Shown here one piece after another: positions 1-20,000 of a DNA stretch of 20,000 nucleotides; within the stretch, counting starts at the first letter, position 1, and each line of letters opens with the position of its first letter. Position numbers and translations under genes: made by a program. The notes below the pieces were generated by a model. The model was not told the DNA's origin and ran no database searches. It saw nothing but the letters and a program-made list of their open reading frames with translations. The stretch spans positions 50,082 through 70,081 of the forward strand of contig QPGO01000299.1 in NCBI GenBank assembly GCA_008632985.1, given 5' to 3'. This DNA comes from Psammoneis japonica. Lineage: Eukaryota.

Positions 1-1131
1 GTCATGGATGCCTTTGGCAATGCATGGTCCTGCAAGGCAGTCACCAACAGCAGGAGTCCCATTGGTCAATGCCACGATGACAAGTGCAACATGAAGCCGA
101 TGCTGACTTGGATGCACCACAACCGAGCTCAGCTTGACTTTGCACTTCAAGACATGGACCTCCAACATGACGGTCCCACCCATCCTGACTTTGCGCTGAC
201 TGCCAGCACCTTCAAAAATCTCTCACTGGATGACAGCAGGCCATGGAATGATGTTGTCATTGGCGGAGGCGGTGACACGGGAATTCCCAAGGTGCACATG
301 GATCGGCTGAAGTTCCCTGAGCAAGCAAGGAATGCTCATAGATCCAGGCAGCATTGGAACTTAACAGCAACACACACGGGCAGGCAAGGAGAACTGATTT
401 GTGAAGGCAGTTGGTTGCACGGCTGTGACAATGATGAGATGCTAGATCTTTTAGCTGCTGGATCGAGGGGGGATGAGCTCTGTTTGGTGATTGACAAGCA
501 AGATGTTGATGCGTTGAGAGAAACGTCAACCGTTGGCTTGCCCACCTGTGGAATGGACAAAAATGGGAGGTGCAGACCACTTTCATTGGAAGACAGTCTA
601 GGAGGTGTGTGCTCCCTGGTCATGGACAGGAAAGGCATCGCATTTGATGCTGGGAAGCTTGCGGACTTGTTCGAGTGCCAAGTCAAACAAGACTCACCCT
701 ACAGGTTGTGGCGTTGTGATGAATTGGAGTTCTTTGAATTGACACCAAGGACTGTTAACAGTTGGACATTGGAGATCATTGAGAAGAAGAACTTCTGTGA
801 TGATTACAAACATTGTTGTGAAGATAAGAAGGAGATGAGACAGTGAAGACATTGTCTTAAAATGAAGAAAGAAAAGATCCGTCATGATCACGTTGAGCGT
901 TTTGTCCGTTGTGTTCGTGGGGTGATGAATGCCTTTGATCACATGACTGATCACTCTTACAATGGAAGGTACAGTGATTTTGTCATTGTCCATTTGGAGG
1001 AGGATGCCATGGAAGAATTGGACCAGAGATCGATTTTGGCACCAAGCAGCAATCAGAGGTTAGAGCACATGGATGCAAAGTTCAGACCATCACAGGGATT
1101 AATGTTCATGCACAAAACTGCACAGTTGTAA
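1..1131 (+). pseudogene. Decayed ORF of unknown function, probably open beyond the left edge of the window
   Basis: ORFs 4..846 and 862..1131 are in the same frame, separated by one TGA (844-846, plausibly CGA->TGA). Cys/His-rich and Tyr-poor like the flanking TEs. No recognisable domain. Confidence 0.45.
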
Positions 1132-1461
1132 GTTTTAAATGAGATGATCAAGCCAAACATCAAATTTGTCATTGACAATTATGTTCAACATTTGAACTGA
1201 ATGTTTCATCCCTTGATTTGGAACAAATGCAACCAGGGATGTTGTTTTCAAAGAAAAACACGTAGATTCCTAATTGTGGTTGTTTTTGAAAGCAATGCCA
1301 CCAGTTGTGAACACATGACGAAGGGAAGCAGCATCACCTTTGGAGTGTTGAGGAAGAGGTTTGAAATTTTGCAATGGCAAACTTCCTCTGAGACCTGCTG
1401 CACTGCACAATCACGGCAAACTGCAGGCCTTTGCCACAAGACATGCATTAAGTTGAGGGCA

Positions 1462-2752
1462 ATGGCAAGGAATGAGAAAAAGGTGGAGAAGGATGGGGCA
1501 ACAGCAGAGGCACCACCAAATGGCCCAAGGCCAACAGCAGCATTGCAGCAGGCGGGAGCTGCAAGTGATCACCAATCACTGAAGAGAGAGGTGGAAGAGG
1601 TGGCACGGAGAGAGCCATTCCCAAAAGCGAAATTCCTCATGAAGGCAGACATGGCAAGTGGTGGCAAGGTGTTGCAGCCAATGCAGAAAAACACAGCAGA
1701 TGGCAAGTTCACCAAGCGCGAATGGGCAGGATTGTGGGAGGACTGGGTGAAGAAAAGCTTTCTCAATGCAATCAATGCAAAAAGAAACACTGTGTGTCAG
1801 ACGACAATGAAAAGTGCAATGAGTGGCAAGCAAGGTGGAGGTGGGCATTTCCAAAATGGGCATGGGTGTGGTGCTGCTGATGAGAACCTGATTTTGCTGC
1901 AGTCGTTGTGACAAAAAAACAAACCACAGAAATCTGTGGCAGGAAGAAACCGGCAAGGACCACCAAGAAAATCAAGAAGCAGAGAAAGGACGAAGCCGGC
2001 ATTGAAGAAGAATTCGCAGCAACTTGGGAGGATGAGACAGTTGACACTGTTGTGTCTGAGAAGCAAAAGAACAGGGAGAGGTGCACGCATGGTTCTACAA
2101 AAACATCCTAAAATTCATGAAGAGCACTGCGATGTGGAGAAGGATGGTGGAGTCCAGCAGCACCAAGGCTGCAGATCTGGCTGTGGCAAGCGATGAGGCA
2201 CTGGCCCTTTTGATGATGGAAAACCACTGGAAGGTTTGGGAGCACAAGACCATGCTGGAGGGAAAGGATGAAGGGAGCGATGAGGATAAACCAGCACTGT
2301 TGCACACAGACCCGTGGTGACAGCGTGACTGGTGGAAAGATGAAGGAATGCTGCACTTCAACGCCCTGCTTTGGGAGGTAAAGGAAGACAGGGCAAGTGA
2401 GCAGGGTGTGCATTTCAACATGTGGCACACCGATGGAAAGAAAAAGGAGAGCAAAGGCAAAGGAAAAAAGGGAAGAAACACTAAAAAACCAGCGGATTCA
2501 GAGATGAGAATGCAAGCAACAACAGAGCTGTCTAGTGACGATGAGGAGGACAACAATGCAGCAGAAAAACAAGGTGACAAAAAAGATTATGAGGAAGACA
2601 ACAATGTCCAAGAAGACAGCGACAACAGCAGAGAAAGAAAAACTCCAGCACAGGCAGGTTGGAGATGTAAATCAATGGGGACCACAGCATTAACTCAGTG
2701 TTCATTGACATTCCATGTTAAAAAGGAAATGCTGTTAATCGCTGTTGGTTGA
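1462..2752 (+). pseudogene. Decayed intron-containing gene of an 'SDEA-x-ALL-x-x-EN-x-W' family, recalled as repeat-associated in diatoms
   Basis: ATG at 1462. Splicing 1826-1902 joins the 1201 frame to the 1908 frame; a frameshift near 2080 leads to ...ASDEALALLMMENHWKVW...LHTD...W(stop 2318-2320)...WKDEGMLHFNALLWEVKEDR, then a Lys-rich/acidic tail. Family recognised from memory only. Confidence 0.5.
1826..1902 (+). other. Putative 77-bp spliceosomal intron with donor GCAAGC (probably ancestral GTAAGT)
   Basis: G|GCAAGC at 1826, CTGAT branch-like motif near 1877, TTTTGCTGCAG acceptor ending 1902. Removal gives in-frame ...MS-V-V-V-TKKQ. Confidence 0.55.
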
Positions 2753-3065
2753 GGAAAGTGGCCTAAATTCATTGCACACAGCACCAAAAACACAAAAACC
2801 AGCACATGACACAAGAGTGACAAACAATGTTGATTGTCAGGTTCTATGGTGAAGGAAAGCAGACACAAAATGGGAAGAGAGGGGGGTGTTTGAAAGTTAA
2901 AGTTGATTTCTCGTAGTTAAAAAGATGTCTCCATGGATGATTTAATTAACCATCACAGATTAAAAATCATTGCCAGCTGCACAACTAACAAGATTTGAAA
3001 CTATAAAATTGTTGTCTGTAAAAGGAACAAAAATCACTGTGAAAAGGGATGAGTGGATCACCACA

Positions 3066-4472
3066 TTGCGGCCTCTGATGGGTGACCATTGTGAATGTGT
3101 GGAAGTGCACATGGATGACCCATGGCCTTCCCCATGAAAGATCCTTGGGCCTTCCTTAAAACTCTCATGGAGAAATGCAAGTTCAAGCTCAAAGGCACTG
3201 GACCATTGGAATTTCACCTTGGCTGCAACTTCTCTCGTGACTCTGATGGCACACTGTGCCTTGCTCCTCCCAAGCACATTGAGCACATGGGGTTGAAAAA
3301 TTACAAATGCCTTTGTGCAGAGAAGCCTTGCAATGGTGTGCCATCCCCTTTTAAAAAGGGAAACCACCCCAAGCTTGACACCTCCAAACTGCTGCTCCCT
3401 GATGGCATTCATCAATTTCAGTCCTTGGTTGACTCTCTGCTGTGGGCTGTGTTGCTTGGTTGCATTGTCATCACTGTGGCCATCATGTCTCTCTCTGGCT
3501 TCCACATGCCACCCCATCAAGGCCCCTGGATTGTGCCAAACGTGTCTGCAGATGCTTGTCAAAGATGCAACATGGTGCCCTGTGCATGTGCACACTGAGG
3601 AACCCAACCATTTGGACCTCCCCAAGCCTGTGTGCAACTGGGCTCAAACCATGCATGGTGATGTGGAAGAATTTTTTCCTGAAGATGCACCCAAGCCTCT
3701 TGGCAAGTTTGTCACAATGACCCACTGTGTTGATGTGAACTTGTTCTCCATAGCATGCTCACTTGATGCTCCATCACAGGCATCATTCATTTTCTTGACA
3801 AGTTTCTCGCTGATTGGTTCTCCAAGAAACAAGCCACAGTCAAGACTGCAACTTACAAATCTGAATTAGTTGCCACCAGGATGTGTGTTGAACAGATCAT
3901 TGTTCTGTGCATCACATTGCATTGCCTTGGCATCCAAATCCATGACACATGTTAAATGTTCGGGGACAACAAGTCAGTTGTGGACAGTGCTGCCACTGTC
4001 CCGCACTCCAAGTTACACAAGCGACACATGGCCCTCTTGTTCCATCATGTGCTTGTTGCAATTGCCTCCAGTTTCCTTGAGTTCCACTTTGTGGAAGGTT
4101 TCTGCAACCCTGCTGACATCCTCAGCAAACACTGGGGTTGCTCCCAGGTTTAGAACCTCCTCCATCCTCTCATGTTTTAGAACTTCAATCTGACTTTGAA
4201 TCTGTCTCTGTGGACTCCTCAAGCAAACTGGGGAGTGACAGGATTTGAACAAGATTTTAGTTTGTCTTGCAAAATTGTGTGTGCTCTCAGTTCCACATGT
4301 GATGCATGATGCAGTTTGCTTTTGAGCCACTCAGCTTGCAAGAACAACAACAGCAGTGCCGACAACATGACACACATCTTTCAGCTCCTGCAACAGTGAC
4401 TCATCTGCTGTTTAGACAGAGCAGCAAGGAGTTGTTGTTTTCTTCCACCCATTTTTTCTTCAATTTCTGTTG
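3066..4472 (+). mobile_element. 5'-truncated, decayed Ty1/copia retrotransposon (CoDi-like): RT C-terminal half, RNase H, PPT, 3' LTR
   Basis: DHCECVEVHMDD at 3084-3119 (decayed YVDD), KFKLKGTGPLEFHLGCNF, HCVDVNL, DWFSKKQATV, MFGDNKSVVDS, NPADILSKHWG; several frameshifts and stops. Colinear with the minus-strand copy at 19233-20000. Confidence 0.93.
4236..4472 (+). repeat. 3' LTR of the decayed copia, preceded by PPT GGGGAG (4230-4235)
   Basis: Starts TGACAGGATTTGAACA right after GGGGAG. Aligns with gaps to the reverse complement of 19233-19508 up to CTTCAATTTCTGT, where similarity stops. Confidence 0.8.
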
Positions 4473-5649
4473 ACAAATGCAACACACTCAATCAATGACA
4501 ACAAACTCACCATCATGCTGACACATTTAGACAGAGCACAAATGGTGTCACATGTGGAAAAACAGCTGAAATGCTCAATTTTTTGCCTGTCAGACAAAAC
4601 GTGCTGTTGATTTTTGTGGCTCTCAAAAGCTGTCAAGAAAATGCCAACTGCAGAGTTGCCATTGTGAGGTGGTTCCTGGGGCTTCTGACTGTGGCATTCC
4701 TGTGGTGAATTTGCACTGAAGCTGAGTTGTGCTTGTCAAGTTAGCATGGATGCAGCTTCACACATCACATGCCCGCCATTCTCAGCCCAGTGGCAGGGCC
4801 CGCAGCAAAAAAATGAACCATGATTCAGCACAAAAAGCTGAGGGCATGAAAGAAGTCATTTTTTATCTCCTTTTTGATCCTGGTGGCTGCAGCATGTCTG
4901 AGGATGATGATGAGACAACACTTTCATCATTTCCAATCACTTTCAGTTTGAATGAAAAGGGCCCCATTAATTCCAAGGAACTCAAGAGCTGTTTTGTGAA
5001 AGCAGCAGTCTTGTCAGGTGTTGGACCAATGTTTTGGATGCTCCAGGGAAAAGAGTGTGTGAGCGCATCAATGGCAGTCAAGGTTGAACAAACACTGAGA
5101 TGCTTGCCAACTTTGCTTGCTTGGAAAACTGGATTTCCCTGCAGGTTCACCAAACACAACTCTCCTTCTGCAAATTGTGGATCAGCCACTTGGATTGTCC
5201 AAGTCTTTTTTCTTAAGAAATTTGAGAAGCTGGGGGAGTGCCAGCCAGGTTGGAGTGCTGAGTGACAATCCCAAACATGAGTCTGGATCACCTGAGTGGT
5301 GTGGATGTTGGGATGCTTGTCTTTGGCAGAGAGCTTCCCAACAGAACATTCTCCAAGAGAGAGGAGCACCAAAAAGTGGAAAAAGTGGGCCCTGAACCAT
5401 TTACATGAGCTGCATTGAAAAACAAAAGGGAGCACAGCATGTGAGTCAGCACAAAAAAATGATGAAACAGAACTGCTGACACAGAGAGGCTGATCCAATG
5501 ACAGCTTGCACCTTCAATGTTCACAGGAGGAACTCTCAATTTTTTGGCTTGTCTTGTCGTGACATTTTGGGTTCTTCCTTTAGAATGGATGGCAGCATGT
5601 TCAAGAAGATGCTTTTGGCATCCAGCAGCATGAAATGAGCCCAATGGGG

Positions 5650-5830
5650 GTCACAAACACCACAGAGAAAGACAAGATGCAGTCTCCAACTCCAAATCCA
5701 TGGGGGGTCTTTTCCTCCAGACTGGTGGCTCTCTTTTAAATTCTGGCAACTTTTTGATGGCTGGCAAGCAGGAAGAATGGAAAAAAGCTCTGGAGATGCA
5801 CTTCAAGGCAAAAAGGGGAAAAACATGTCA
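5650..5830 (+). pseudogene. Possible fragment of a DNA-transposon protein C-terminal region
   Basis: RQDAVSNSKSMGGLFLQTGGSLLNSGNFLMA...WKKALEMHFKAK resembles a G-x-x-F-x-x-TGG-x-x-LNS-x-D-F pattern recalled from diatom transposase-associated proteins. No catalytic motif seen. Confidence 0.25.
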
Positions 5831-6409
5831 GCAACAATTGGTGCCAAACTCACACAATGCAACACAGCACACCACATGCCATGCTGCCCATGCAAGGAGT
5901 GATGACTGCCCCTGCATTGGTGTGGAAAGTGTGGTGTGATGTCATGGTGATGCAATGTTCACATGAAGGGTTGGATGACAGAACCCTGGGAACTGAACTT
6001 TTGGTTGGAATAGAGAAAATCACAATTCTTTGTTTTTTCATGCAAAATGCCTTTGCAGTGTGGTCTGCATGGCAACACAGGGGCCCTCAAGTTCCAAGCA
6101 GCTGAAAAAGCTCTGCCTGACAATGATGGCAAAATGCAACAATGGTGTTGCTCACTTGGCTTCTTTCTGTTGCAATGTTGTGCACCAGCCCACCCAGCAA
6201 ACAACAACAACAACAGAAAGTGCAAGCTTCTGCAAAGCACCAGAAGGAAGCATTTTGTGATTGATTGTTGCATGAGTTCTACAAAGAATTCTGAGCAAAA
6301 TTGATTGTCAGGTCAGGAGGCTGCAATGAACAGAAAGCTTTTTATTTCATTCTTGCAGCAAACTTGCACTGGTGTGTGTTGATTTGGTCATTGCTTTGCA
6401 ACCCCAAAA

Positions 6410-6940
6410 GAGACCAGAATGTGCTGCATCATGGTCAACCCATCTTGGCTGTCATTGGAGCTTTGTTTCTCAGTGCTTGAATCACACAGAAATTATGTAG
6501 AAAAACAAATTTTGTCAGAGTCAACAAGAAGAAACTTTGTCTCAGTGTTGCCCTCTGTTTCAATCATTTGCATCATTGGGAAGCTTTTTTCTCCACTTTT
6601 TAGTCATGTGTTTTTTGCAAAAAGTTGGAAAAACTCATTTGCCTGGGTCATGTCATCTGACAGTTCACATCAGGACATTTTCACACATCTGCCAGGTGTC
6701 ACTTCACTTGTTTTAGCATTTGCACACAATTTTCTAGGAAAAATCCACTGTTTGAGAATTTACAGAGATTCTTTGTCATTGGTTTGGGGGACATCTTCGG
6801 AAGTGAGACTGTCGAAGAAAGTTACGTAGAATTTGCACTAAAACAGTCTGTCAATCAGTGCGATTGGGGCATTTGGGATCACTGGACAGATCCCATGTGT
6901 TTTTTTGTGTGCGCACAAATTGCACTGGGAAAACCCCCAA
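6410..6940 (-). pseudogene. Possible Ulp1/C48 peptidase-like relic
   Basis: Manual minus-strand translation: VFPV..(frameshift in A run)..THGICPVIPN...KFYVTFFDSL (FFDSL at 6805-6819)...KQSSNDSQDGLTMMQHI with several stops. Motif order resembles P-x(n)-HW / FDSL / Q-x(n)-CG. Confidence 0.3.
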
Positions 6941-7035
6941 ATGCACTGGCGATCAGACCGCCTTCATTGATCTCACTTCCAAAGACGCCCCCCAGGTTGT
7001 CCTCATTTTTGAATGTTTTTTATGTTGTCCATTCA

Positions 7036-7127
7036 CAAAAGTGTGGCAGCCCACATTCAAGACAGTGATTGAATGTTCTGAAAATCCACCTCACAACTGG
7101 CTTGTCTTTTGGGAGCTCTGTGTTCAA
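7036..7127 (+). repeat. Diverged dispersed direct repeat, copy 1 (copy 2 at 8105-8191)
   Basis: Shared blocks GTGTGGCAGC, TCAAGACAGT, AATGTTCTGAAAA, AACTGGCyTGTCTTTTGGrAGCTCTGTGTTCAA in both copies. Confidence 0.85.
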
Positions 7128-7322
7128 AAGGGGTCATTTGCTGCTTTTTTTGCTTAAAGTTGGCCGAATGGCTCATGATTTGCACCATTTTTCCTGAATT
7201 TCACTGTGCTTCACCATGGTAAAAACATCAAGCCACAAATCTGTGACATGGGCAGTCTGTTTGCCCACTCTCCTTTGTTTTGTGTTCATTGTGTGTTAAA
7301 GGTCATGTGTGCTGCACCAACT

Positions 7323-7478
7323 GTTGTGGATGGAAAACTGCATTTTGCTTGGAGAACTGTCAAGATTGCGATCATCATTGTGCTTCGATCACGGCACCTG
7401 TTTGTGGATGGACAACTGCATTTTGCTTGGAGAACTGTCAAGATTGCAATCATCATTGTGCTTTGATCACGGCACCTG
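7323..7478 (+). repeat. Tandem duplication of a 78-bp unit (2 copies)
   Basis: TTGTGGATGGAmAACTGCATTTTGCTTGGAGAACTGTCAAGATTGCrATCATCATTGTGCTTyGATCACGGCACCTG occurs twice with period 78; about 3 internal mismatches, 2 at CpG. Confidence 0.95.
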
Positions 7479-8971: not shown

Positions 8972-11631
8972 TGCCTCAACTGTGTCTTAGCCTCCCCTGG
9001 GGCATTGGCCGTGGCTTGATCTGGCGGGTGTGAGGCTTTCGGCTGCGGCATCACCTCTGATCATCGTGCTTGCTTCGTGGACTTTGACACATTGGCCTTG
9101 TTTGGCAACCCATCAGTGGATCTCCCAAAGGCTTTTTTCAGAAACATTTGGGCTTTGTCCAAACCTCACATCACAGCACATCTTCAGTCTCTTGGCCCAA
9201 TGCTTCAGAGTCAATCTGTGTTGGAGCAGTCCATTCAGTTGAACTAACTTGATGCCCCAGATCATGCCCTGGCAGAATGATTGGATCGTGACATTGTGCA
9301 ATTTTCTCTGGCAGCTGCCAAGAAATGCCATGTTCATTGTGAACCTGACCTGGTTGGTTGAGCTCACTGATCTGAGATGCCGGGCACACACATTCACTGG
9401 GTTGGTTTCCATGATGTGAACCAGGTTGGATTGTGTCTCACAAATTTGCTCTGTTCGAGAACATCTTCATGTCTCCTTTCTCATTCCAGACACCTTGCAA
9501 AGGTGCCAAGAGGCCCTGTGCTCCACTCAAGCAGAATGCAAGAAAGTGGCAGCCGAGAGTGTTGGCTGTCGTGAATGTGAGATGTCCACAAGGATCACAG
9601 AATTCGATTTTGAAGGTGCCAAATCCTCCCGTGCCCAGGCCACCATCCTGCAAAATGTCAGGAAAGCCAAAGAAATGAAAAAATTGTTCAAAAAGATCAA
9701 TGCATGCAATGCTCAATGGGATGATGGCATCAACAACGTGCAGGTTCCTCAAAATCCTGCTGTTCCCTCAAAGGAATGTCATGACTGGATGACCATCGAT
9801 GCACCGGAAGACATCGCCACTGCTCTTCATCAGAGAAACCAAAAACATTTTGGTCAAGCAAAAGGCACTCTACCAACTGAACCTCCTCCATCTGTGGATC
9901 CACGTTATGATGGTGACACCACAATGGCAGAACTTATCTTGGATGGCAAGTGCAATGCAACCACTCTGAATGATGCTGCCGCATTGTTCATTCAACATTT
10001 GTGGCAGCAGTCTACGGTGTCAGTTTCTAATTTGTTGTCAGCATCCGACCTTGAAGGGAAAATCAGATGTTGGAAAGAATCCACTTCCACATCAATTTAC
10101 TCCGGCCTTGACCTTGGTCATTGGAAGGCAATGCATGCATCTCATAAATTTTCTGAGTCAGTTGCCTCTGACAGCACCCCCACAGCTGACAAGGATGCTT
10201 TGGATGAGGTCCAACGTTCTCTCATTCAGGTCCGGTTGAATCTGTTGAATTGTGCTCTCAGGTGGGGTTGCTCCTTTGACTGCTGGAAAGATGTTGTGAA
10301 CATCATGATTTTCAAAGAACTGGGAAACAACAAGATTTGTCACCTCTGTGTTGTGCACACACATGAAGCAGACTTCCAGTTAATCTCAAGTGTTAAGTGG
10401 CGTGCCTTGGCTCAAAACATGGAGAAACGCAGGCTTTGTGATCCTGGCATCTACAGCACTCATCCCTTCTTAAATGCCAAAGATCCCATGCAACTTGAAG
10501 AAATGATGCTTGAGATCAGCAGAGCTTCCTGTAAGACTGCCGTGCACAGTGACGATGATTGCACATCTTGTCATGACCACAACATCCCTGCGTTGGTTGC
10601 AATTGAAAGCCAGAGCAATGGAACACCAAGGGAAGTCACCCAAGTTGCCAGATCCATGATTCACAAGGCTTGTCATTGGCTGAAAACAGTGTTGGGTTTG
10701 CCTCGTCCTTCACACTCTCACTTTGAAGAATTTCCAACATGTGGCTCAGGACAGGGCAGTGGCAACTTTCCATTCTGCTGGAACCAAATCTGCAACAGTC
10801 TGTTTGCAACATTCAATCAACATGCACACGGTGCATTTTTTGAGACTCCAGATCACTCCTTGTCCCTCAGAGTGTTTGCATGTGGATGCATTGACAATGT
10901 GGGTGCTGGACCTAGCCTTTAAGATGCAGGAGGACAGTCAACTTTGGTGTGACCTTTTTGAATGCCACTGGCCATGAGTTGGAGCTTCCAAAATGTTCTT
11001 TTCACGCAATGGAGTGGATGTTCACCAACAACAGCAAACCTTACCTTCGAGCATGCAATGATGAGATCAACATTGAAATTTCATTGGCAGATTGCATGAC
11101 TGTGAGGTCCAGCAAACAATTGTCAGCATGTTCTTCTCACAAGACACTTGGACACTGTAAAGCTCCAGCAGGAACCCAAAAGACTCAATTTTCTGCCCTC
11201 AAGAAAAAGAGTGACAATGTGGCTCTGTTTTTGTTTGATCATGTCCCCTTGACCGGCATGAGGCTTGGACTCATTGCTTTGCCTGCCATCTGTCTTTGAT
11301 CACGTGTGTTCTGCCAAACACCCACTTCATGAGAAAAGAACTGCAAGAAGTCCAAAGGAAAGCCATTCGCAGCATCTTTGCAAAGTGCGGATGCAATTGC
11401 AACATGAAACGTGACATTCTATTTGATCTGCACTCATTGGGAGGTGGCGGTTTCAGGTCTTTGGATGTGGAGGAGGGAGTGGCACAGATTTTACAGTTTC
11501 TCCGACATTGACATGGCTTGGGGCAACCACAGGCTTTGTCCCAGATTGCGGCAGCATGGACTGCAGTGAGACAATGACTGGCACATGATGGAGGTGGTGC
11601 TCGAGTCATGCACATTCACCAATCAAGAGAT
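8972..11631 (+). pseudogene. LINE ORF2 part 1: endonuclease C-terminus and reverse transcriptase
   Basis: ORF fragments 9426..10922, 10949..11299 and 11296..11511 plus upstream frames, broken by stops and frameshifts; motifs as above. Confidence 0.9.
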
Positions 11632-11789
11632 TTACGGACCAGCGGTGTCGGGACAATCTAACGGATGTCTAGGACAGATGACAATCGTGTGCTAAAGTGA
11701 GCAAAGGAGAGATCATCGGATCTCTCCATGCTGTCTATGCTAGTCTGTCCGACACAAGGGAGTGCACTCCCCATCTTGGATGTCTGTCA
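11632..11789 (-). repeat. 3' LTR (158 bp)
   Basis: Direct repeat of 13945-14113 with an 11-bp indel and about 11 substituted bases. Confidence 0.95.
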
Positions 11790-11798
11790 CCCTCCCCT
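11790..11798 (-). other. Polypurine tract AGGGGAGGG
   Basis: CCCTCCCCT on the + strand directly abuts the 3' LTR. Confidence 0.85.
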
Positions 11799-12492
11799 GA
11801 TGAGCAATGCAATGCTCAACAAGAAAGAAAAAGATGATCCGAATAAAAAGAGAGGACCAGAACAGCAGGAATGAAGAGAAAGAACCAAAAGAAATGGCCA
11901 AGACTTGGTCCGTAAACACGACAACAATCAACGACAATGTCCCATCCCCAAACGACAAGCGGCTGTCGGGAATGAGAGGCATCCAACCACAGTCAGTGCA
12001 TCGGTCTTCGACAAAAAATGTCAAAGGTAGTTCCCAATAAATCTTTTTGGATAAATTGAGTCGTGCACCAAAGGATAATTTCTTCAATCCACAAATAATC
12101 GACGGCAATGGGACATTCTGGCGAGTCACAATGTTGCCAAAAAATGTCATCAGAAGAGATGGGGCCAAAAAATGGAAATCCACCATGGCAGATGATGCGG
12201 CGAAAATGAAGCAATGGCAATCCACCTGACAAACCAATGCTTCTACCACCATTTGTGTAGCCCCTGAAAAACATGTTGGGCAAACAAAATAGATCATAAA
12301 AGTCGCTCAACGTCGGAAGAACATTTTTTGATCAGGGGAGGGATTCCTGTGGCACAGAGGAAGCATGTCAGGCCATTGAGAACTCAATCTTTGACCAAGA
12401 CACCTTGCTTGATGATCATGTTTTGCACGCCGTGCGATGCTCACCTCACATCGGCAATGGTGGACAGGTCCGGAGTGCCGTGAAAAGTGCAA

Positions 12493-13740
12493 TTAGATGC
12501 GACAACGGTCCTGACAACAGAGGAAAGAGATGAAATAGCGGGAGGTGACGAGACTCGGTGGCCCTCTTTCAGGGTCACCCTGCTTCCATTGGTCTTGATC
12601 GGACAAGAGAAGGAATGGCAGCATCGTACATCCGAAATTAATGACGGCCGAACCAAAAATCCGAATTCGAATCTCAACTTGACAACCAACAAAGTGCTGG
12701 CGGCATCCATGTGTAACAGACCACGGCGGCGCATGGGTGGCAAGCAACTCGGGTGTAACCTTGACAACAGAGGATGGTCCATAACTGGGGTGAATGTGGC
12801 CATCTTTGTATGGAACAATAGAATGGCCAGAAACAAAAAACTTTGGGGTCTTGAGCAGGCAGGAGCAGAGTTCGGCAGGAAGTGCCACTGATTTGGCAGG
12901 GATTGCAAGGGATCCCGCATCAACATCTGTAGATTGCTCACCCACAGATTCCACAACAGACATGGTAGACTCGACATTCAAGGAATGAGCATCCATGGGG
13001 TCCATCCGAGTGTCCACAGTGAGTGCATCTGTAACATGACACACAACAGCAGTGTCAGTGTCACATGCAGCAGACCCAGTAACTGGGCACAACTTGGACT
13101 CAGCACATGCATGAGAACTCGAAGTGCTCTTCAATCCATTAGTCATGGCTTGCCCATGCTCGTTTGGACCAGGCAAATGAGTTGCTAAGGCCTTGGCAAA
13201 GTCTTCAGGAGCAGGACCTGTAGCAGCAACCGGTGGAGATACAGAACTTGAGGTTTGAGATGACTTTCCATGTGGAGCATCGGACATGTCGTCCCAACAT
13301 GCAAAAGATGGAAAATCCGGACGGAAGAAGAGAAATGTGGTCTCAACATAGACCGTCATGGTGTCGTGACCGTCTGAAATTGCCTTGATCATAGCCTTCT
13401 GAAGATTGGTGAGGTTTAGACGAATCGGAGAAGCTTCAGGAGCAGCTACAAAGAGAGGAGCTTTATCCATAATCGGACCAATCTGTGTAAGATCCTTAGT
13501 CAGTGTAGCCTTGGGGATGATGAGGTCATGAACGATCTTGTGACGGAGAGTGGCAACAGCATGGCTCTTGAGGCCTTGAGGAGTAAATCCATCCAGAAGT
13601 TCTTTGGGAGCAGGCATCTCGTCGGAATTAAGGACGTTCAGGTAATGATGGGCATCTGGTGAGAGATGCTGGGGGTTGAATGCAACCAGTGTCGACTTGA
13701 TCTTGGTCAAATCGAAGGCGTTTTGATTTTTGTTCACCAT
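12493..13740 (-). CDS. 415-aa ORF in the gag position of the non-autonomous element; function unrecognised, possibly decayed gag-like
   Basis: ACCATGG start about 200 bp downstream of the PBS, sense to the element. The frame continues past the TAA as 12307..12492. No CCHC knuckle recognised. Confidence 0.55.
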   Translation of the reverse strand: MVNKNQNAFDLTKIKSTLVAFNPQHLSPDAHHYLNVLNSDEMPAPKELLDGFTPQGLKSHAVATLRHKIVHDLIIPKATLTKDLTQIGPIMDKAPLFVAAPEASPIRLNLTNLQKAMIKAISDGHDTMTVYVETTFLFFRPDFPSFACWDDMSDAPHGKSSQTSSSVSPPVAATGPAPEDFAKALATHLPGPNEHGQAMTNGLKSTSSSHACAESKLCPVTGSAACDTDTAVVCHVTDALTVDTRMDPMDAHSLNVESTMSVVESVGEQSTDVDAGSLAIPAKSVALPAELCSCLLKTPKFFVSGHSIVPYKDGHIHPSYGPSSVVKVTPELLATHAPPWSVTHGCRQHFVGCQVEIRIRIFGSAVINFGCTMLPFLLLSDQDQWKQGDPERGPPSLVTSRYFISFLCCQDRCRI

Positions 13741-13934
13741 GGTTGCGCGGGAAAAAAAATCAAATTCCTGCGTAGAGCTCTGGTGTGTGTTCTACGGTGG
13801 TCGTTTGATCACAAATCAAGAGGTGAAAAAATAGCTGTGACAATGATGACGATTTCAACAAAGAAAAGGTCGCCAAAATCACACAACAGGCGTTGCAACA
13901 GAGGAGCACAGAGGAAGAAGAACAGCGCACTGCT

Positions 13935-13944
13935 GCTCATGACC
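13935..13944 (-). other. Primer-binding site GGTCATGAGC (GGTTATG-type, complementary to an internal part of tRNA-Met)
   Basis: Abuts the 5' LTR end; one substitution from GGTTATGAGC, similar to the half-tRNA-iMet PBS of Drosophila copia (GGTTATGGGC...). Confidence 0.7.
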
Positions 13945-14113
13945 TTTTGGACTAGCGGCATCGGGACAATCTAATGGATGTCTAGGACAGATGATAATCG
14001 TGTGCTAGATGAGAAAGAAAGTGAGCAAAGGAGAGATCATCGGATCTCTCCATGCTGTCTGTGCCAGTCCGTCCGACACAAGGGAGTGCACTCCCCATCT
14101 CGGATGTCTGTCA
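13945..14113 (-). repeat. 5' LTR (169 bp)
   Basis: Begins TGACAGACATCC on the minus strand at 14113; repeat of 11632-11789. Confidence 0.95.
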
Positions 14114-14118: not shown

Positions 14119-15704
14119 CCGTTGGGTAAACTGTTGTCATTGTATTTGAATGTTTTGACATTGTCCAACATTGCTTCACCAGATGGCATGTCTGTTGACC
14201 AGTTTAAAATTGATGGCCAGCAGTCTCTTCACAGCAGCTGCTTGACTTTGAATCCCACCGAACAGTCTCGCCCATCTGCTGGGGCCTGGAAAGTGTGGCA
14301 TTGTGCATGTTCCTTTTTCTGCAAAGAGGATTTGTTGAAGTTAAGATGTCCATTGTGGCAGTGGGTGGTGCCGACCACCGAGATGCACATGTCCCACACA
14401 GCACACTATGAGCCTTCCAAAGAGCATCTCTGCATTTGCACAGATTCAGGTTTCCAGATGTTCCCTGTGTTCAATGGAAGCACTGCATCCAACAATGCTT
14501 TGGAGACTGTCCCTGACATCTCTCCTGCAGCTTCTCCAGTGTTGGTGACTGCCACCCACGCCAGTCATTGGCGAATCATTTCCCCTGCCACATTGGTTTC
14601 CCTGCCCTCCGCTCCTCTGGTTCCACAGGATTTCATGGACATGTTGCAATCTCTCCCCAAATGGGAGTCCATCTTGTTGTTTGATGATCTGACATTGCAC
14701 ATGTCCGTGTTTGAGATTGCAGACCTGATCGTCCATCATCATGCCTCTGTGGGCAGTGACGGATCAGTTCTGAATTTTTGGGGTGCATTTGGTTGGACAC
14801 TTGCAGTTGACCGCACTCCACTGGTGGATTGTGCCGGCCTGGTTTTTGGTTTTTGACTGTCATCTTATCAAGCCGAAGCATGCGGAATGTTGTTTTTCCT
14901 CCGTTTCCTGTTCCAGTTGTTGAAATGCTGTTGCAAAATGCTCTCCAAAGGTGTGGACATGTGCTGTGATGACTCCTCACTTGTGCGCAATGTTTCCAAT
15001 TTCCAGGATTGCCCCTGTCTGACCAACAATGAGGCAGTTCAAGGTGCCAGAGACCATCACCAGCAACATCACATTGCCAATGCTCCATCCGCAGTCTGGG
15101 ATGTCTTGCATGAAATTTTTCTTTCCATGCAACAAATTTTTGAAATGTCTCATGACAAGCAGCATGGCAACAAAGTTTCTGTCCACTGGGTCAAGGGACA
15201 CCAAGATGACACGACACCCACAGATTCCTTGACCTCACCAGCTTGGTTGAATGTTAGAGCCAACAGGCTGGCAGGATGGCACCAAGGTCATTGCTCCAGT
15301 GACACCCTTTTAGCCCCTCTCATGCCCCAATTGCAATGCCAACCTGATTGTCACTGGTGCCACAATGTCAGCCACCCCCCGGTTCTGGTTCTTCACATGA
15401 AAGACAAGCATGGCTGGTCTGACAAAATAATCTGTGAGTCAATCAATTGGGCAGCACATGCCAAACCAATGTCTCAAAACATCCGTCGGAAAGTCAGCAC
15501 AGTTAAACTGGTGCAGGAACTTCTCCCCACAAACAAAATTGTCCACCGTTGCAACCCCACTTGCCTTGATTGCTGCACTCACTGTCAAGATCCAATGGAG
15601 GACAGAGACCACATTCTACATTGTCTGCACAATGAAGCATGGTGCCAAAAATTTCTGCAAGGCCTGCCCAAGAAGTGTGATGACATCCACACATCACTGT
15701 CCTT
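14119..15704 (+). pseudogene. LINE ORF2 part 2: post-RT region, RNase H, Zn finger (copy A), truncated near 15704
   Basis: LYLNVLTLSNIASPDG, SDGSV..GAFGW, AEACGML, HWVKGHQDD, EDRDHILHC; in-frame TGA at 14854-14856. Confidence 0.9.
14690..15704 (+). repeat. ~1015-bp direct repeat, copy A (copy B at 16145-17159)
   Basis: Ungapped match at offset 1455; roughly 20 mismatches by eye. Confidence 0.97.
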
Positions 15705-16144
15705 TTTTTTACACCGGCCTGAGTTTTTTGTTTTTGTTTTTGTTTTTGTTTGCATGTGCTGTGCCTTCACTTGCAACTGCACTGGCTTCAAAAAAGATTA
15801 GACACACCCTCCTTTTCTCCAGCAATGCTGGAGTTTTTCGGAGAGGACCCAAAGCGTGCTTCAGGATCTAGAGATCCATTGCCATTGCGTTTTTCTACTT
15901 CTTTTTCCGTGACGTCTTGAATCTTTCTGAATCTTCAACAGCCAATGACGTCAGATGCATTGACAGCCGTTGAAAGATCTTTTTTCGATCTTTTTTGTCG
16001 ATTTTTTTAGCTCGGAAAACAGCCTGCGGCACTGATGAGTGAAAGCGAAAGCTCACATCATCAAGCTTTGCACGCTAGGCAACTCTCTAATGGGATTGCT
16101 GTCATGCCAAAGGTTGTCTGTACATTAGACAACCCCGACACCAG
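15705..16144. other. 440-bp non-LINE insert between the duplicated segments
   Basis: Starts with a T run and (TTTTTG)n at 15724-15751; retains CpG and TpA; contains the inverted repeat CTCCAGCA-A-TGCTGGAG (15817-15833) and two TGACGTC motifs; no convincing ORF. Confidence 0.7.
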
Positions 16145-17740
16145 TGACATTGCACATGTCCGTGTTTGAGATTGCAGACCTGATCGTCCATCATCATGCC
16201 TCTGTGGGCAGTGACGGATCAGTTCTGAATTTTTGGGGTGCATTTGGTTGGACACTTGCAGTTGACCGCACTCCACTGGTGGATTGTGCCGGCCTGGTTT
16301 TTGGTTTTTGACCATCATCTTATCAAGCCGAAGCATGCGGAATGTTGTTTTTCCTCCTTTTCCTGTTCCAATTGTTGAAATGCTGTTGCAAAATGCTCTC
16401 CAAAGGTGTGGACATGTGCTGTGATGACTCCTCACTTGTGCACAATGTTTCCAATTTCCAGGATTGCCCCTGTCTGACCAACGATGAGGCAGTTCAAGGT
16501 GCCAGAGACCATCACTGGCAACATCACATTGCCAATGCTCCATCCGCAGTCTGGGACGTCTTGCATGAAATTTTTCTTTCCATGCAACAAATTTTTGAAA
16601 TGTCTCATGACAAGCAGCATGGCAACAAAGTTTCTGTCCACTGGGTCAAGGGACACCAAGATGACACGACACCCACAGATTCCTTGACCTCACCAGCTTG
16701 GTTGAATGTTAGAGCCGACAGGCTGGCAGGATGGCACCAAGGTCATTGCTCCAGTGACACCCTTTTAGCCCCTCTCATGCCCCAATTGCAATGCCAACCT
16801 GATTGTCACTGGTGCCACAATGTCAGCCACCCCCCGGTTCTGGTTCTTCACATGAAAGACAAGCATGGCTGGTCTGACAAAGCAATCTGTGAGTCAATCA
16901 ATTGGGCAGCACATGCCAAACCAATGTCTCAAAACATCCGCCGGAAAGTCAGCACAGTTAAACTGGTGCAGGAACTTCTCCCCACAAACAAAATTGTCCA
17001 CCGTTGCAACCCCACTTGCCCCGATTGCTGCACTCACTGTGAAGATCCAATGGAGGACAGAGACCACATTCTACATTGTCTGCACAATGAAGCATGGTGC
17101 CAAAAATTTCTACAAAGCCTGCACAAGAAGTGTGATGACATCCACACATCACAGTCCTTGCAAGATTTGATTCTTTCTGCCATGGAGTCATGGGCCCGGG
17201 GGGAGTTGCTTTGCGCCAAGGATCTTCACTGCAGTGTGGTGTCAGTTTTCCAGTCTCAGGAGCAAATCGGATGGCGTCAACCATCAAATGGATGTTTCTC
17301 CAAAGATTGGAACGTGACTCAAACATCGTATCTTTTAACAAGTTGCACTTGCCAGAACCTTTCTGACCATGAGAAGTGACTGGATTGGGCAGCTGCAATT
17401 GGCGCAATTGTGTTTGGGAGCAGTGGTGGGAGCCATGGGACAACCACAATGATGTAGTCCATGGGCATGATGAAGAAACCAGGCAGTCCTCCCAGCATTG
17501 GGATGCCAAGGCGGAGGTAAAAGCTGTGTGCTTGAAGTCAGATGAGTGCCTGGTGAGAGACAGGGAGCATCTGTTGGATTTGGTTGAAGAGCACTTGACA
17601 CATTCTACACATCGTCTCCACAATTGGTTGGCTGTGGTTAGGCCAATGTTCAAATCAAACATTTGAGAAGCTAAACAGTTTGCTGCCAGAGGTGCGAGAA
17701 CCATTGCAAGTTATTTTGGTGCATCATCACCCTCAGGCTA
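16145..17740 (+). pseudogene. LINE ORF2 part 3: duplicated RNase H and Zn finger (copy B) continuing to the C-terminus
   Basis: ORFs 16342..17379 and 17376..17666, then read-through to the TAG at 17738-17740. Confidence 0.9.
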
Positions 17741-18114: not shown

Positions 18115-19232
18115 ATGACGAATTTTCTGCCGCAGCAGGCTGGCCCCACCGGTGAGTCTCCCCTGAGTCCTCCCCCTGACAAGGACACTGCTCCATCCAC
18201 TCCAACCAGAACTGGATCGAGAAAGCCCAAAAGCTCTACGTTAAAAGAAATTGCCATCCGTTTTGAACTCACCTCTTCCAACGACAATGCATCCATGGTG
18301 TTGGCAATGGGCCATGCTGCGATTCTGAATGCCCTTCAACAGAAAGCTTCCCAAGATCCTTTGATGAACAAGATGACAATTGTGTTTAATTGTGGCCTAA
18401 AAATGCCCGAAATCAATGTTGTTGAGTGGACTTCTGGCTCACTCATTCTCAACACTTCGTTGTGCACCGCATTGGAGGTTCCCGCCGTCGCTCCCCCATG
18501 TTTGTGATTGCTCATCAAATCCATGCATCTCTGTCGATCGCTGATGTCAGGAAGATTCCCTTCATCAACAAAGTGCTAAAAGACCAGGGCATCCACATGT
18601 GCTGCCACAAATGGGACGAGACCATTGTGGACCTCACCTGAGTCACTCTTCCAGTTGACTTGCTCCCAAAGCATCATCCCGTTGATTTGGCTCAAAAACT
18701 GTTGATGGCCCTACTTCCTCAATGCAGCTGCTCAAAACTGCCTTTTTGCCTGATCATCCAGTCAGCTTCATCCCTGAACGACCCTTCTTTATGCACCAAT
18801 TTTTGTGCTGTCGAAACTCCCTGCGACCACACTAAAGAGATGATTTTTGCCTTGTTGGAAGTGTTGAAAGATCACCCCCCAGCACTTGTTCTATCCCATT
18901 GGCATCACTCTCAACCAGACGCCTTTGACAAAGCGGCAAGAAAACAACGAAAAACCAGTGTGCCAAGCTTCACGTCATTCCGTTGCTCTGTCATGTGGAG
19001 GCACTCTCCTTTTATTTGTCTGACACCATTAAAGCAGTTCAAGGAGTGATCAATGTTGTTCCATCCAAGAAGCTCTCTGCCATCCCCAGGTGCAACATTT
19101 TGGTGGATGAGGACTTTTTCCATCAAGCCAAACACTGCATTGCAGAACAAGCACCTTCCGGAATGGTTTCAGGCCATCACCGCAGATGCAGGTGTCCCAG
19201 AAAGCCAACCCAAACCAATGATCCCAGGCATC
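18115..19232 (+). pseudogene. Putative ORF1 of a second LINE (Ambal-like), frameshifted and cut by the copia LTR
   Basis: CACCATG start, Pro/Ser-rich N-terminus (SPPPDK), then IAHQIHASLSIADVRKIPFINKVLKDQGIHMCCHKWDE, AFDKAARKQ, FYLSDTIKAVQGVINVVPS...RCNILVDEDFF across ORFs 18094, 18426, 18660, 18983 and 19053. Pattern recalled from diatom LINE ORF1 proteins. Confidence 0.6.
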
Positions 19233-19508
19233 TGACAGAAATTGAAGGCAAATGGCAAGAATTCAAACAACAACTCCTTGCTGCTGTCTAAATGGCAGAT
19301 GAGTCTCCGCTCAGAGACCGTCACAGGAGCCGAAAGACGTGCAAGTCGGTATAATCGGGCTACTGTCATTGTTCTTGTGAGCCTTGTGGCTCGAAAGCAA
19401 ACTACATCGCGCGCAAACGCGCGGAACTAAAGCACACAAAACTGTGCACGGTGAACTAAACAGCGTGCGACATTTTGCGCGCACCTGAATCCTGTTCAAA
19501 TCCTGTCA
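19233..19508 (-). repeat. 3' LTR (276 bp), TGACAG...CTGTCA
   Basis: Perfect 6-bp terminal inverted repeat, starts right after the PPT, homologous to 4236-4472. Confidence 0.88.
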
Positions 19509-20000
19509 CTCCCCAGTTTGCTTGAGGAGCCACAGAAACAGATTCGACTTCGGATGGAATGAAGTTCCAGAACATGAGGGGGCGGAGAAGGTCCCAGATT
19601 TGGGAGCAACCCCAATGCTTGCTGAGAATGTCAGCAGGATTGCGGGAGCCTTCGATGAAGTGGAACTCAAGGTGACCAGAGGCAATTGCCTCATGCACAC
19701 GGTGGAACGATAGTGCGGTGTGTCGCTTGTGTAACTTGGAGTGCGGGATGGTGGCACTGTCTACAACCGACTTGTTGTCACCGAACATGTAACTGACATT
19801 GCGGATCGGGACGCCAAGGCAGCGCAGGGTGATGCGCAGGTCGACAATCTGCTCGACACAAGTCCTTGCAGCAACAAATTCAGACCCGCAGGTCGCAGTC
19901 TCCACGGTGGCTTGCTTCTTAGAGAACCAATCAGCCGGGAATTTGTTGAGGAAGTGGAGCATTCCCATGACAGAGCGTCCGTTGAGCATGCAATGGCACA
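19456..20000 (-). CDS. Copia Pol C-terminus (RNase H), partial; frame runs into the LTR
   Basis: ORF 19456..19989 with Ty1/copia RNase H motifs; three usually conserved Tyr appear as Cys. Confidence 0.85.
   Translation of the reverse strand, partial: CHCMLNGRSVMGMLHFLNKFPADWFSKKQATVETATCGSEFVAARTCVEQIVDLRITLRCLGVPIRNVSYMFGDNKSVVDSATIPHSKLHKRHTALSFHRVHEAIASGHLEFHFIEGSRNPADILSKHWGCSQIWDLLRPLMFWNFIPSEVESVSVAPQANWGVTGFEQDSGARKMSHAV

Follow-up and report, generated by a model that had tools for sequence, protein, structure and literature searches.

TpA loss across a nest of retrotransposon remains from Psammoneis japonica, a probable parallel to the hypermutation of viral DNA in Bigelowiella natans

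TpA depletion across the window

What has left so few TpA steps in this stretch of Psammoneis japonica DNA, in which direction did it work, and on what kind of DNA? The window (the whole stretch analysed, 20 kb) holds 226 TpA steps compared to about 1411 expected (observed/expected, o/e, 0.16; z = -42.7); in 1000 mononucleotide shuffles the expectation was 1410.9 ± 27.7 and the lowest shuffle gave 1319. TpG and CpA are abundant (o/e 1.69 and 1.64 in the whole window), so the combination of scarce TpA and abundant TpG/CpA noticed in the earlier sequence-only reading is real, while CpG is low (0.33) and ApA is not depleted (1.20). All 40 bins of 500 bp are depleted in TpA, with o/e of 0.00–0.42. 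With the cut-offs taken from a preprint on the marine alga Bigelowiella natans (Mettrop et al., bioRxiv 2026, 10.64898/2026.01.13.699255), 20 of 20 one-kb windows show rho TpA ≤ 0.43 and 16 of them also rho CpA+TpG ≥ 1.52. The median TpA o/e in 80 related Copia loci from metagenomes is 0.68, and one of the 80 falls below the 0.16 of the window; L006, an unrelated contig from a metagenome, has 3 TpA in 2766 bases (o/e 0.02). Stop triplets, counted on both strands, amount to 191 TAA, 127 TAG and 985 TGA.

Elements within the window

The window is probably best explained as a nest of dead retrotransposons, with two Copia fragments, one rearranged LINE that carries an internal 1.46-kb duplication and is split by a younger insert, and DNA that cannot be annotated (Table 1). 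Pfam matched none of 12 window ORFs at E ≤ 0.01 and none of 38 further ORFs at the curated cut-off, and the 498-aa ORF was not recognised as a reverse transcriptase (RT) by Pfam search; it is assigned to the LINE RT because of its 47 homologues at E ≤ 1e-3 (about 875–2260 aa), some of which bear APE endonuclease, RT or RNase H domains (precomputed PF03372, PF00078 or PF00075). The 5'-truncated part of the LINE matches residues ~308–1164 of relatives that are mostly 1900–2100 aa long, and the duplication is seen as 98% identity over 1015 nt between 14690–15704 and 16145–17159 (blastn). For Copia fragment 1, tblastn of 28 polyproteins (1845–1997 aa) gave HSPs across 3122–4177 in three frames, and blastn aligned it to fragment 2 with 73% identity over 3748–4470. 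Fragment 2, with 1838 homologues at E ≤ 1e-3 (top identity 76%), is more mildly mutated than fragment 1 (TpA o/e 0.19–0.28, CpG o/e 0.68–0.70). The insert has TpA o/e of 0.27–0.42 and CpG o/e of 0.49–0.76; its open frame has no more than 19 relatives, all of them weak (best E 8.9e-9), and none of the nine relatives tested with Pfam had a match. The direct repeats flanking it show nine differences, four of them TA versus TG/CA and three CG versus TG.

No host gene, 5' LTR or intron was recognised within the 20 kb. The short words GGTCATG (7 times) and GCAAGC (18 times, both strands), put forward earlier as an altered PBS and an altered splice donor, are common there, outside any recognised LTR or intron context. 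The unannotated DNA is as TpA-depleted as the identified elements in the 500-bp bins. The claim that all TE classes are affected reaches as far as Copia and LINE, the two classes identified, the remaining DNA having no recognisable protein.

Table 1. Positions of the features in the window and what each is based on
Feature	Coordinates	Strand	Basis
Continuous tract, TpA- and CpG-depleted, TpG/CpA-enriched	1..20000	.	composition, 500-bp bins, shuffles, one-kb windows
Copia fragment 1, RT end to RNase H C-terminus, frameshifted, HMDD at 3108-3119	3020..4470	+	tblastn, blastn
Tandem units, two of 77 nt, 96% alike	7324..7478	.	repeat search
LINE, 5'-truncated, including 498-aa ORF 9426-10922	9020..11562	+	47 homologues, tblastn map, alignment
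Direct repeat copy 1, flanks probable younger insert	11636..11789	+	blastn, 88% identity to 13949-14113
Insert, less mutated, probably interrupts LINE; open frame of 432 codons (12493-13791)	11790..13948	-	composition, weak relatives
Direct repeat copy 2	13949..14113	+	repeat match to copy 1
LINE continuation, residues ~1247-1767 of relatives, RNase H motif VKGHQD	14143..15693	+	tblastn map, translation
Duplicated LINE segment and LINE 3' end, residues ~1425-1954	16144..17717	+	tblastn map
Copia fragment 2, RNase H C-terminus, continues past window end	19235..20000	-	homologues, tblastn HSP 19995-19567

Tyrosine loss and the direction of change

Conserved columns, defined by at least 80% agreement among at least 15 homologues, number 304 in Copia and 274 in the LINE, where the internal duplication makes some count twice. 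Only 2 of 20 tyrosine columns are intact (nine now read Cys, eight His and one Phe), while intact columns number 23/23 for Lys, 28/30 for His, 20/24 for Phe and 12/16 for Asn. The TpA-type change at Tyr (17/20) is far more frequent than A-to-G or T-to-C at ten control residues (9/228; Fisher p = 3.9e-17), and at codon position 1 a T precedes six of seven inferred A-to-G changes compared to 5 of 88 retained A-first codons (p = 3.5e-6). Since Tyr is lost, Lys and His are kept and A-to-G occurs after T, the change is from A:T to G:C, affects TpA only and takes place on both strands. The strand symmetry is also found in the TG/CA counts of the four TE segments (172/155, 272/271, 382/385 and 67/69). 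Polarity and strandedness are thus as the sequence-only reading had them, and the TpA-specific excess of A-to-G changes, whose absence it had named beforehand as a possible refutation, is present.

The same is visible at single motifs. The 498-aa ORF contains, on recount, exactly the 3 Tyr and 26 Cys given before, along with 23 His, and its 12 listed relatives have 2.6–4.4% Tyr and 1.4–2.2% Cys. In Copia, HMDD replaces the YVDD found in four of five relatives aligned there, HCVD and KHIE both occur in the translation, and the altered residue is Tyr in 8/8 aligned relatives for ATCGSEF and LRCLG and in 5/8 for HWGC. In the LINE it is Tyr in 9/9 relatives for both HEAD and CHD and in 7/9 for EACG. 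The CGSGQGS motif is present as described but its first site is not strictly Tyr, since relatives read Tyr (5/9), His (3/9) or Phe (1/9).

Context of TpA loss and a second layer of CpG decay

Of the residual TpA, RTAY makes up 5/173 outside the insert and 3/53 inside, compared to 32% in 59 unmutated relatives, which come from other organisms and are not ancestors of the window copies. YTAR, in contrast, makes up 49% outside and 28% inside versus 18% in the same baseline. Loss therefore proceeds in order, RTAY first and YTAR last. ATAT is absent where about 26 are expected (both strands pooled). CTAC/GTAG persists above the prediction of a simple additive context model.

A separate decay of CpG to TpG/CpA is superimposed on the TpA loss and supplies part of the TpG/CpA excess: only 15 of 39 arginine columns are intact, the rest including changes to His (12), Cys (6) and Gln (5), and TpA depletion tracks CpG loss along the window (rho 0.56). 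The two are separable because several public relatives lose Tyr with Arg intact (9/9 in P0306, 7/7 in P0203 and 15/18 in P0006). Deamination of 5-methylcytosine, judged inadequate from the start, indeed accounts for the CpG component only.

Variation among copies

The copies are unequally mutated. Paralogous contigs of run X1 have TA at 11 places where the window has TG/CA and the reverse at 2, among the best-supported 40 of 2243 variant places, a non-random set; at position 19453 about 96% of X1 depth reads TAA where the window has TGA. Within the window paralogue depth correlates with residual TpA (Spearman +0.60), so that depletion is strongest where the sequence is least repeated, and the main target in B. 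natans is single-copy (Mettrop et al., 2026), which together lend no support to the idea that the process is repeat-directed. The same Tyr loss is found in 7 of 212 public relatives.

Proposed explanation and its alternatives

According to the main text of the preprint, the same signature arises live in B. natans: in mutation-accumulation lines, two integrated viral regions gained 231 de novo mutations, of which 230 are A-to-G/T-to-C changes, all at TpA, the main target being single-copy resident viral DNA that mutates in culture (Mettrop et al., 2026). Domains of RT, endonuclease-RT and DDE type are over-represented in low-TpA CDS there, an ADAT2-like candidate was found and an ADAT2-type adenine deaminase is proposed. 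The earlier remark that no description was known is thereby overtaken, while its idea of a genome-defence-like mutator with an ADAT/TadA-type deaminase recurs as the same hypothesis in the preprint, the enzyme still being a candidate.

As the signatures match, we read the window, with good though not full confidence, as dead retrotransposons bearing TpA hypermutation like that of B. natans viral DNA (Mettrop et al., 2026). A TpA to TpG/CpA process would have struck the copies after they arose, changing either member of the TA step from A:T to G:C, with resident DNA and not a transposition intermediate as target. It would be nearly saturating, with RTAY sites going first and YTAR sites last and CpG decaying in parallel, and the window would be its long-term footprint on silenced foreign DNA. 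We think it likely that the process is aimed at foreign or silent DNA and does not act on the genome as a whole. Its chemistry may be adenine-to-inosine deamination by a candidate ADAT2/TadA-type deaminase, an assignment that we make tentatively. In the natural substrate of these enzymes, tRNA A34, U33 as far as is known always precedes, which is a UpA step.

It is less probable, and on balance unlikely, that thymine is attacked at TpA instead, for example by a TET/JBP-type dioxygenase giving 5-hydroxymethyl- or 5-formyluracil, which mispairs with G and yields T-to-C (A-to-G on the other strand). Since TA is its own reverse complement, the products are identical, with TG about equal to CA, and the base attacked cannot be told from sequence; equally, the RTAY hierarchy fits RTA on the thymine strand as well as TAY on the adenine strand. 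Dinoflagellates carry hydroxymethyluracil in place of T, with a preference for TpA and TpC, and formyluracil promotes T-to-C mutation. Against this stands the ADAT2-like candidate of the preprint, whose main text reports no dioxygenase search (Mettrop et al., 2026).

A host-wide mutational or compositional bias, under which TEs drift to the host equilibrium with no targeting of mobile DNA, would fit the depletion of every part of the window, even where no TE protein can be recognised. We consider it improbable, as 11 of the 13 TA versus TG/CA places among the 40 best-supported ones still read TA in the paralogues and most Copia depth keeps TAA at 19453, and as TpA o/e ranges over the 20 kb from 0.00 to 0.42 in step with the loss of CpG, which is expected from time since insertion or silencing state.

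Editing of retroelement RNA or single-stranded cDNA before integration, ADAR-like or APOBEC3-like but acting on adenine, has in its favour that every identified target in the window is a retroelement and that one public relative (P0027) is one-sided (Tyr to His 6 and to Cys 0 of 17 conserved Tyr columns), as minus-strand-only cDNA editing predicts. It is nevertheless quite improbable here, because outcomes are balanced between Cys and His, each element has TG and CA in nearly equal numbers, the unannotated DNA is depleted just as much and four of nine differences between the direct repeats are TA versus TG/CA. ADAR prefers an edited A that follows U or A, and the undepleted ApA and the intact Lys columns are unlike that preference. 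Moreover, the viral DNA of B. natans is already resident, and single-copy, when it mutates in culture (Mettrop et al., 2026).

Error-prone synthesis by a pol-eta-like polymerase, raised by the sequence-only reading and taken here as the repair of heterochromatin at recurring lesions or nicks, is a poor fit and very improbable: the A-to-G errors of pol eta fall at WA, TA among them, but AA, which WA also covers, is spared (ApA o/e 1.20, Lys AAR codons intact), Asn turns to Asp/Ser in no more than 3 of 16 columns (after T in two of them), and the depletion comes close to saturation with a tight RTAY preference. A sequencing, base-calling or polishing artefact is hardly credible, with no evidence of one in the X1 contigs, contig L006 or the 212 public relatives: five X1 contigs, which may share the sample of the assembly, are identical to the window over 7192 bases with 0 differences, L006 is unrelated, and the relatives with Tyr loss come from ENA, JGI and NCBI sources.

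Comparison with known systems

RIP in ascomycete fungi resembles the process in the window in that dinucleotide-specific transitions inactivate mobile DNA in place and leave a strong compositional footprint. However, RIP changes CpA to TpA, so that TpA rises, while the window shows the opposite, as had been recognised (TpA/ApT 0.18, (CpA+TpG)/(ApC+GpT) 1.81), and its depletion is greatest where repeats are fewest. RIP makes stop codons, whereas here TAA and TAG are taken away, so the elements would die by missense (Tyr to Cys/His, with HMDD for YVDD as an example) and long spurious ORFs remain in all six frames. Deamination of 5-methylcytosine at CpG gives the same TpG/CpA products and is the second layer in the window, covarying with TpA loss (CpG o/e 0.33; Arg to His/Cys/Gln in 23/39 columns), but is incapable of removing TpA or turning Tyr into Cys/His. 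Animal ADAR and APOBEC editing is likewise deaminase-driven hypermutation directed at mobile nucleic acids, and its transitions are clustered and of a single type. ADAR, however, acts on dsRNA and is less strict about the neighbouring base, compared to A:T change strictly at TpA, and APOBEC on C in single-stranded DNA, compared to strand-symmetric change at A:T in what is, by analogy with B. natans, resident DNA (Mettrop et al., 2026).

The closest likeness, one of signature, is to B. natans, with the same dinucleotide, polarity, two-strand outcome and footprint (Mettrop et al., 2026). There the targets are integrated viral DNA (rho 0.45 in the NCLDV region) and mutation is seen ongoing, while in the window they are Copia and LINE elements, with o/e of 0.16 over 20 kb, and the footprint is read from sequence alone. 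The window has strong CpG loss and the RTAY-before-YTAR order, while the main text of the preprint is without the words ‘CpG’, ‘flanking’, ‘trinucleotide’ and ‘tetranucleotide’. Beyond the preprint, as represented by its main text, the window thus adds retrotransposons near saturation, the RTAY/YTAR hierarchy, covariation with CpG and Tyr loss in relatives from public sources.

Depletion of TpA throughout the window

The composition of the window (GC 46.9%) departs from expectation at four dinucleotides: TpA and CpG are scarce, with observed/expected ratios (o/e) of 0.16 and 0.33, TpG and CpA are abundant at 1.69 and 1.64, and the remaining twelve lie between 0.90 and 1.21, with ApA at 1.20. 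TpA is found 226 times against 1410.9 ± 27.7 expected from 1000 mononucleotide shuffles (z = -42.7), the lowest of which still held 1319. The depletion has no gap, TpA o/e being 0.00-0.42 in 40 of 40 bins of 500 bp, which bears out over the whole window what the sequence-only reading had claimed, namely that TpA is scarce and TpG/CpA abundant. As the baseline for the family, 80 related Copia loci from metagenomes have a median TpA o/e of 0.68 and a median CpG o/e of 0.83, and only one of them falls under the window's TpA value.

On both strands together TAA occurs 191 times and TAG 127 times, as against 985 for TGA. Since TAA and TAG are nearly absent, long stop-to-stop frames are found in all six frames, with 70 of at least 90 codons spread over them. 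With two of the three stop codons removed, gene finders report long false ORFs. The six-frame translation contains 0.34% Tyr versus 5.5% Cys and 5.0% His. The deficits amount to about 1184 TpA, whose loss leads to a gain of G:C, and about 736 CpG, whose loss leads to A:T. TpA loss raises GC and CpG loss lowers it, and GC of the window stays near 47% despite the heavy mutation; because these effects oppose each other, a scan of GC content would miss such regions.

Elements in the window

The features identified are collected in the table below. Among the relatives of the minus-strand Copia frame are many Copia polyproteins that carry PF07727 and measure about 1850-2000 aa. The 498-aa ORF has 47 relatives, the best 41% identical, and belongs to a LINE family with members mostly of 1900-2100 aa, some of which carry precomputed APE endonuclease (PF03372), RT (PF00078) or RNase H (PF00075) domains. 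Of the 47 relatives, only 2 have the Pfam RT model listed with their precomputed domains. The RT motifs of relatives read DAxSCYDRI and YGTGQGSGNSP, which look nearer to telomerase or Penelope RTs than to typical L1-type LINEs. The 432-codon frame has 19 relatives at E ≤ 1e-3 (best E 8.9e-9, none below 1e-10), with matches to their N-terminal 190 residues, and none of nine tested relatives has a Pfam family; the frame possibly encodes a structural protein of an unclassified element.

Pfam matched none of 12 large window ORFs at E ≤ 0.01 and, in a search at E ≤ 1, none of 38 further ORFs at its curated cut-off, nor did it recognise a host gene among the window ORFs. Segments 1-2900 and 4470-9020 gained no annotation from Pfam or homology searches.

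Positions of the features identified in the window
Feature	Position	Strand	Basis or remark
Copia 3' fragment	3122-4177	+	tblastn with 28 Copia polyproteins; three frames
Copia 3' fragment	19995-19567	-	tblastn with 28 Copia polyproteins
Copia frame	19456-19998	-	1838 relatives at E ≤ 1e-3, identity up to 76%
LINE	9020-11562, then 14143-15693, then 16144-17717		tblastn map
Internal LINE duplication	14690-15704 and 16145-17159		98% identical
Direct repeats bounding the insert in the LINE	11636-11789 and 13949-14113		88% alike
Open frame, 432 codons, in the least-mutated insert	12493-13791	-	without known family
Two tandem 77-nt units	7324-7478		96% alike; in unannotated DNA
Segment	6671-7337		high paralogue depth in run X1 (a public sequencing run)

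Direction and specificity of the change

The direction of the change was read from the window's codons at conserved columns (at least 80% agreement among at least 15 homologues), 304 from Copia and 274 from the LINE, part of the latter counted twice owing to the internal duplication.

Fate of conserved residues in the window
Residue	Kept	Replaced by
Tyr	2/20	Cys 9, His 8, Phe 1
Lys	23/23	
His	28/30	Asp 1, Cys 1
Phe	20/24	Cys 2, Leu 1, Pro 1
Asn	12/16	Asp 3, Gln 1
Arg	15/39	His 12, Cys 6, Gln 5, Leu 1

TpA-type changes are found at 17 of the 20 Tyr columns, compared with A-to-G or T-to-C missense changes at 9 of 228 columns of ten control residues (Fisher p = 3.9e-17), and most of these nine are themselves TpA events spanning a codon boundary. 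Where A became G at codon position 1, the preceding base is T in 6 of 7 cases, against T in 5 and C in 52 of the 88 retained A-first codons (p = 3.5e-6). The strands are balanced, with Cys and His arising from Tyr in nearly equal numbers and TG about as frequent as CA in each element. The changes are thus A:T to G:C transitions confined to TpA, on both strands, as the sequence-only reading had proposed. The Tyr to Cys or His motifs that it listed stand when taken one by one, with the YGxGQGS site holding only in part, the nine aligned relatives there being divided between Tyr (5), His (3) and Phe (1). The splice-donor and PBS words that to it looked hit too are too short and occur too often in the window to be informative. 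The Arg losses are the classical signature of CpG decay and form a layer apart from the TpA change.

Flanking context of the surviving TpA

Of the TpA steps that survive, hardly any have RTAY flanks. Under a first-order model with both strands pooled, ATAT is found 0 times against about 26 expected, ATAC/GTAT stand at 0.21 and GTAC at 0.29 of expectation, while TTAA stands at 1.64 and CTAA/TTAG at 1.51.

Flank classes of TpA steps in the window and in a baseline of relatives from other organisms
Set	RTAY	Mixed	YTAR
Baseline, 59 unmutated relatives, 220 kb	32%	50%	18%
Younger insert, 53 TpA	3 (6%)	35 (66%)	15 (28%)
Window outside the insert, 173 TpA	5 (3%)	83 (48%)	85 (49%)

RTAY is lost first, then the mixed class and then YTAR, relative to a baseline of relatives from other organisms rather than the ancestors of these copies. 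Since TA is palindromic, this order allows three readings: TAY as seen from the adenine strand, RTA as seen from the thymine strand, and recognition of RTAY as a palindrome. A single-strand model with additive context effects, TAY being good and TAR poor, gave a rough fit only, with mixed sites and CTAC/GTAG surviving above prediction, and was set aside. Candidate enzymes, and the published de novo mutations, can be tested concretely and at little cost against this order of RTAY before YTAR.

Copies in the sequencing run

Run X1 contains 79% of the words sampled from the window and is the single matching run; no RNA run with window words is listed, and X2 and X3, runs of the same sample, have almost no window coverage. 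Five X1 contigs are identical to the window over 7192 bases with 0 differences, an exact match which argues against a polishing artefact, although X1 may come from the very sample that was assembled. A total of 6895 contigs align to the window at 80% likeness and the families are therefore multi-copy, with summed depth at the Copia end above 100,000 versus about 30-36 for exact single-copy contigs.

Among the best-supported 40 of 2243 variant places, a selected sample, the window has TG or CA where other copies have TA at 11 places and the reverse at 2, so that X1 paralogues retain TA at 11 of 13; the window has TG or CA against CG at 8 places and CG against TG at 1. At position 19453 the window has TGA, where TAA makes up about 96% of the depth. 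TA thus persists in other copies of this organism, which, in a comparison of selected variants, favours a process specific to copies or regions over a host bias that is uniform.

Along the window, more TpA is left where paralogue depth is higher (Spearman +0.60, p = 5e-4) and where more CpG is left (Spearman +0.56, p = 0.001), and the younger insert is the least TpA-depleted part. These trends fit a change that builds up over time or depends on silencing state. They give no support to dependence on repeat number, the depth trend being opposite to a simple dose effect and confounded by copy age. Paralogue pairs within the window (n = 5) differ by TA versus TG/CA at 14 places, by CG versus TG/CA at 34 and otherwise at 164, too few for a spectrum. 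Double differences of TG versus CA between copies were dropped as a marker, because an ancestral CpG yields the identical pattern.

Occurrence in other public sequences

Among 212 analysable public Copia relatives, seven (P0063, P0306, P0006, P0201, P0203, P0219 and P0027, from ENA, JGI and NCBI) have Cys or His at 30% or more of the conserved Tyr columns, compared with 56 of 3215 Tyr columns in the other 205. The presence of Tyr-less relatives in several public sources suggests that the process extends beyond one culture. Several Tyr-losing relatives retain their Arg codons and therefore TpA editing occurs without CpG decay. The metagenome contig L006, a Copia fragment, holds 3 TpA in 2766 bases (o/e 0.02) with moderate CpG loss (0.44), and is an independent public case in which the signature has reached saturation. 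In P0027, a partly mutated relative on the 2561-base metagenome contig L011, Tyr became His six times and Cys never, a one-strand pattern in contrast to the balanced one of the window. This hints that some events may be one-stranded, and could have arisen on a single-stranded intermediate that was edited, or in one early event.

Mechanism

The change combines dinucleotide specificity, polarity, strand symmetry, a context order and heterogeneity between copies with a CpG layer that is separable from it. We propose that it would be driven by an enzyme acting at TpA in resident foreign DNA that is probably silenced. ADAT-type adenine deaminases have a UpA step as their natural tRNA substrate. For this reason, and since an ADAT2-like candidate is reported for B. 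natans in a preprint, deamination of adenine to inosine is the mechanism that we would rank first. Modification of thymine at TpA comes second, and the sequence cannot tell it from adenine deamination. A pol-eta-like process acting at WA fits poorly, as ApA is untouched in the window, and so does editing of RNA or cDNA before integration, since the change is strand-symmetric and the unannotated DNA is depleted too. GC-biased conversion is excluded, since A:T to G:C change outside TpA is lacking.

For retrotransposons the long-term effect is that about three quarters or more of the TpA sites are erased and catalytic Tyr residues destroyed. Should the chemistry be deamination of adenine in DNA, nature would have its own equivalent of the engineered adenine base editors. 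It is possible, and in our opinion rather doubtful as a whole, that the host is one other than B. natans and that uncultured protists widely defend themselves by TpA editing, which would read RTAY in double-stranded DNA, need no cytosine methylation and be their chief means of killing retrotransposons. If so, RTAY would provide a direct biochemical assay for the enzyme, a sequence-specific DNA adenine deaminase or thymine modifier.

Comparison with known systems

Fungal RIP is the reverse of what is found here: TpA/ApT is 0.18 in the window and (CpA+TpG)/(ApC+GpT) 1.81. RIP turns C:G into T:A at CpA and creates a TpA excess, so that by the usual thresholds TpA/ApT is high and (CpA+TpG)/(ApC+GpT) low. 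ADAR-type editing tolerates U or A at the 5' side and leaves strand-coherent clusters, whereas in the window ApA is at 1.20, all 23 conserved Lys are kept and the strands are balanced. The window does resemble CpG methylation decay in its CpG o/e of 0.33 and in the conversion of Arg to His, Cys or Gln at 12, 6 and 5 of 39 columns; such decay accounts for only part of the TpG/CpA excess and for none of the TpA loss. Literature searching on cytosine methylation in Bigelowiella yielded nothing useful.

The closest likeness is to Bigelowiella natans. The sequence-only reading knew of no description of such a process, which does not hold, since a 2026 preprint describes the same signature in integrated viral DNA (Mettrop et al., bioRxiv 10.64898/2026.01.13.699255). 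Full-text literature searching found no other description of TpA-to-TpG/CpA hypermutation, the other matches being fungal RIP papers, and this preprint gives the single known natural case of A:T to G:C rewriting at one dinucleotide in resident DNA. According to that preprint, two viral regions, one an integrated single-copy NCLDV region and the other of virophage origin, took 231 of 302 nuclear point mutations in B. natans mutation-accumulation lines; 230 of the 231 were A-to-G or T-to-C, all such GC-biased changes being at TpA, and the rate in the viral regions was about 1000-fold over background, with mutations in only some lines (10.64898/2026.01.13.699255). It further reports 324 low-TpA CDS, among which RT, endonuclease-RT and DDE domains are enriched, 124 clusters of TpA-depleted 1-kb windows, and an ADAT2-like adenine deaminase as the proposed enzyme, with a candidate in B. 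natans (10.64898/2026.01.13.699255). Our window passes the TpA cut-off, as given there, in 20 of 20 one-kb pieces and both cut-offs (TpA, CpA+TpG) in 16 of 20, and shares with the B. natans process the confinement of A:T to G:C change to TpA and the TpG and CpA products on both strands. The signature is of the kind that the preprint defines and is already described. The words 'CpG', 'flanking', 'trinucleotide' and 'tetranucleotide' are absent from the main text of the preprint (10.64898/2026.01.13.699255), and relative to the preprint the window and its relatives add saturation in retrotransposons, the RTAY rule, covariation with CpG and environmental occurrences.
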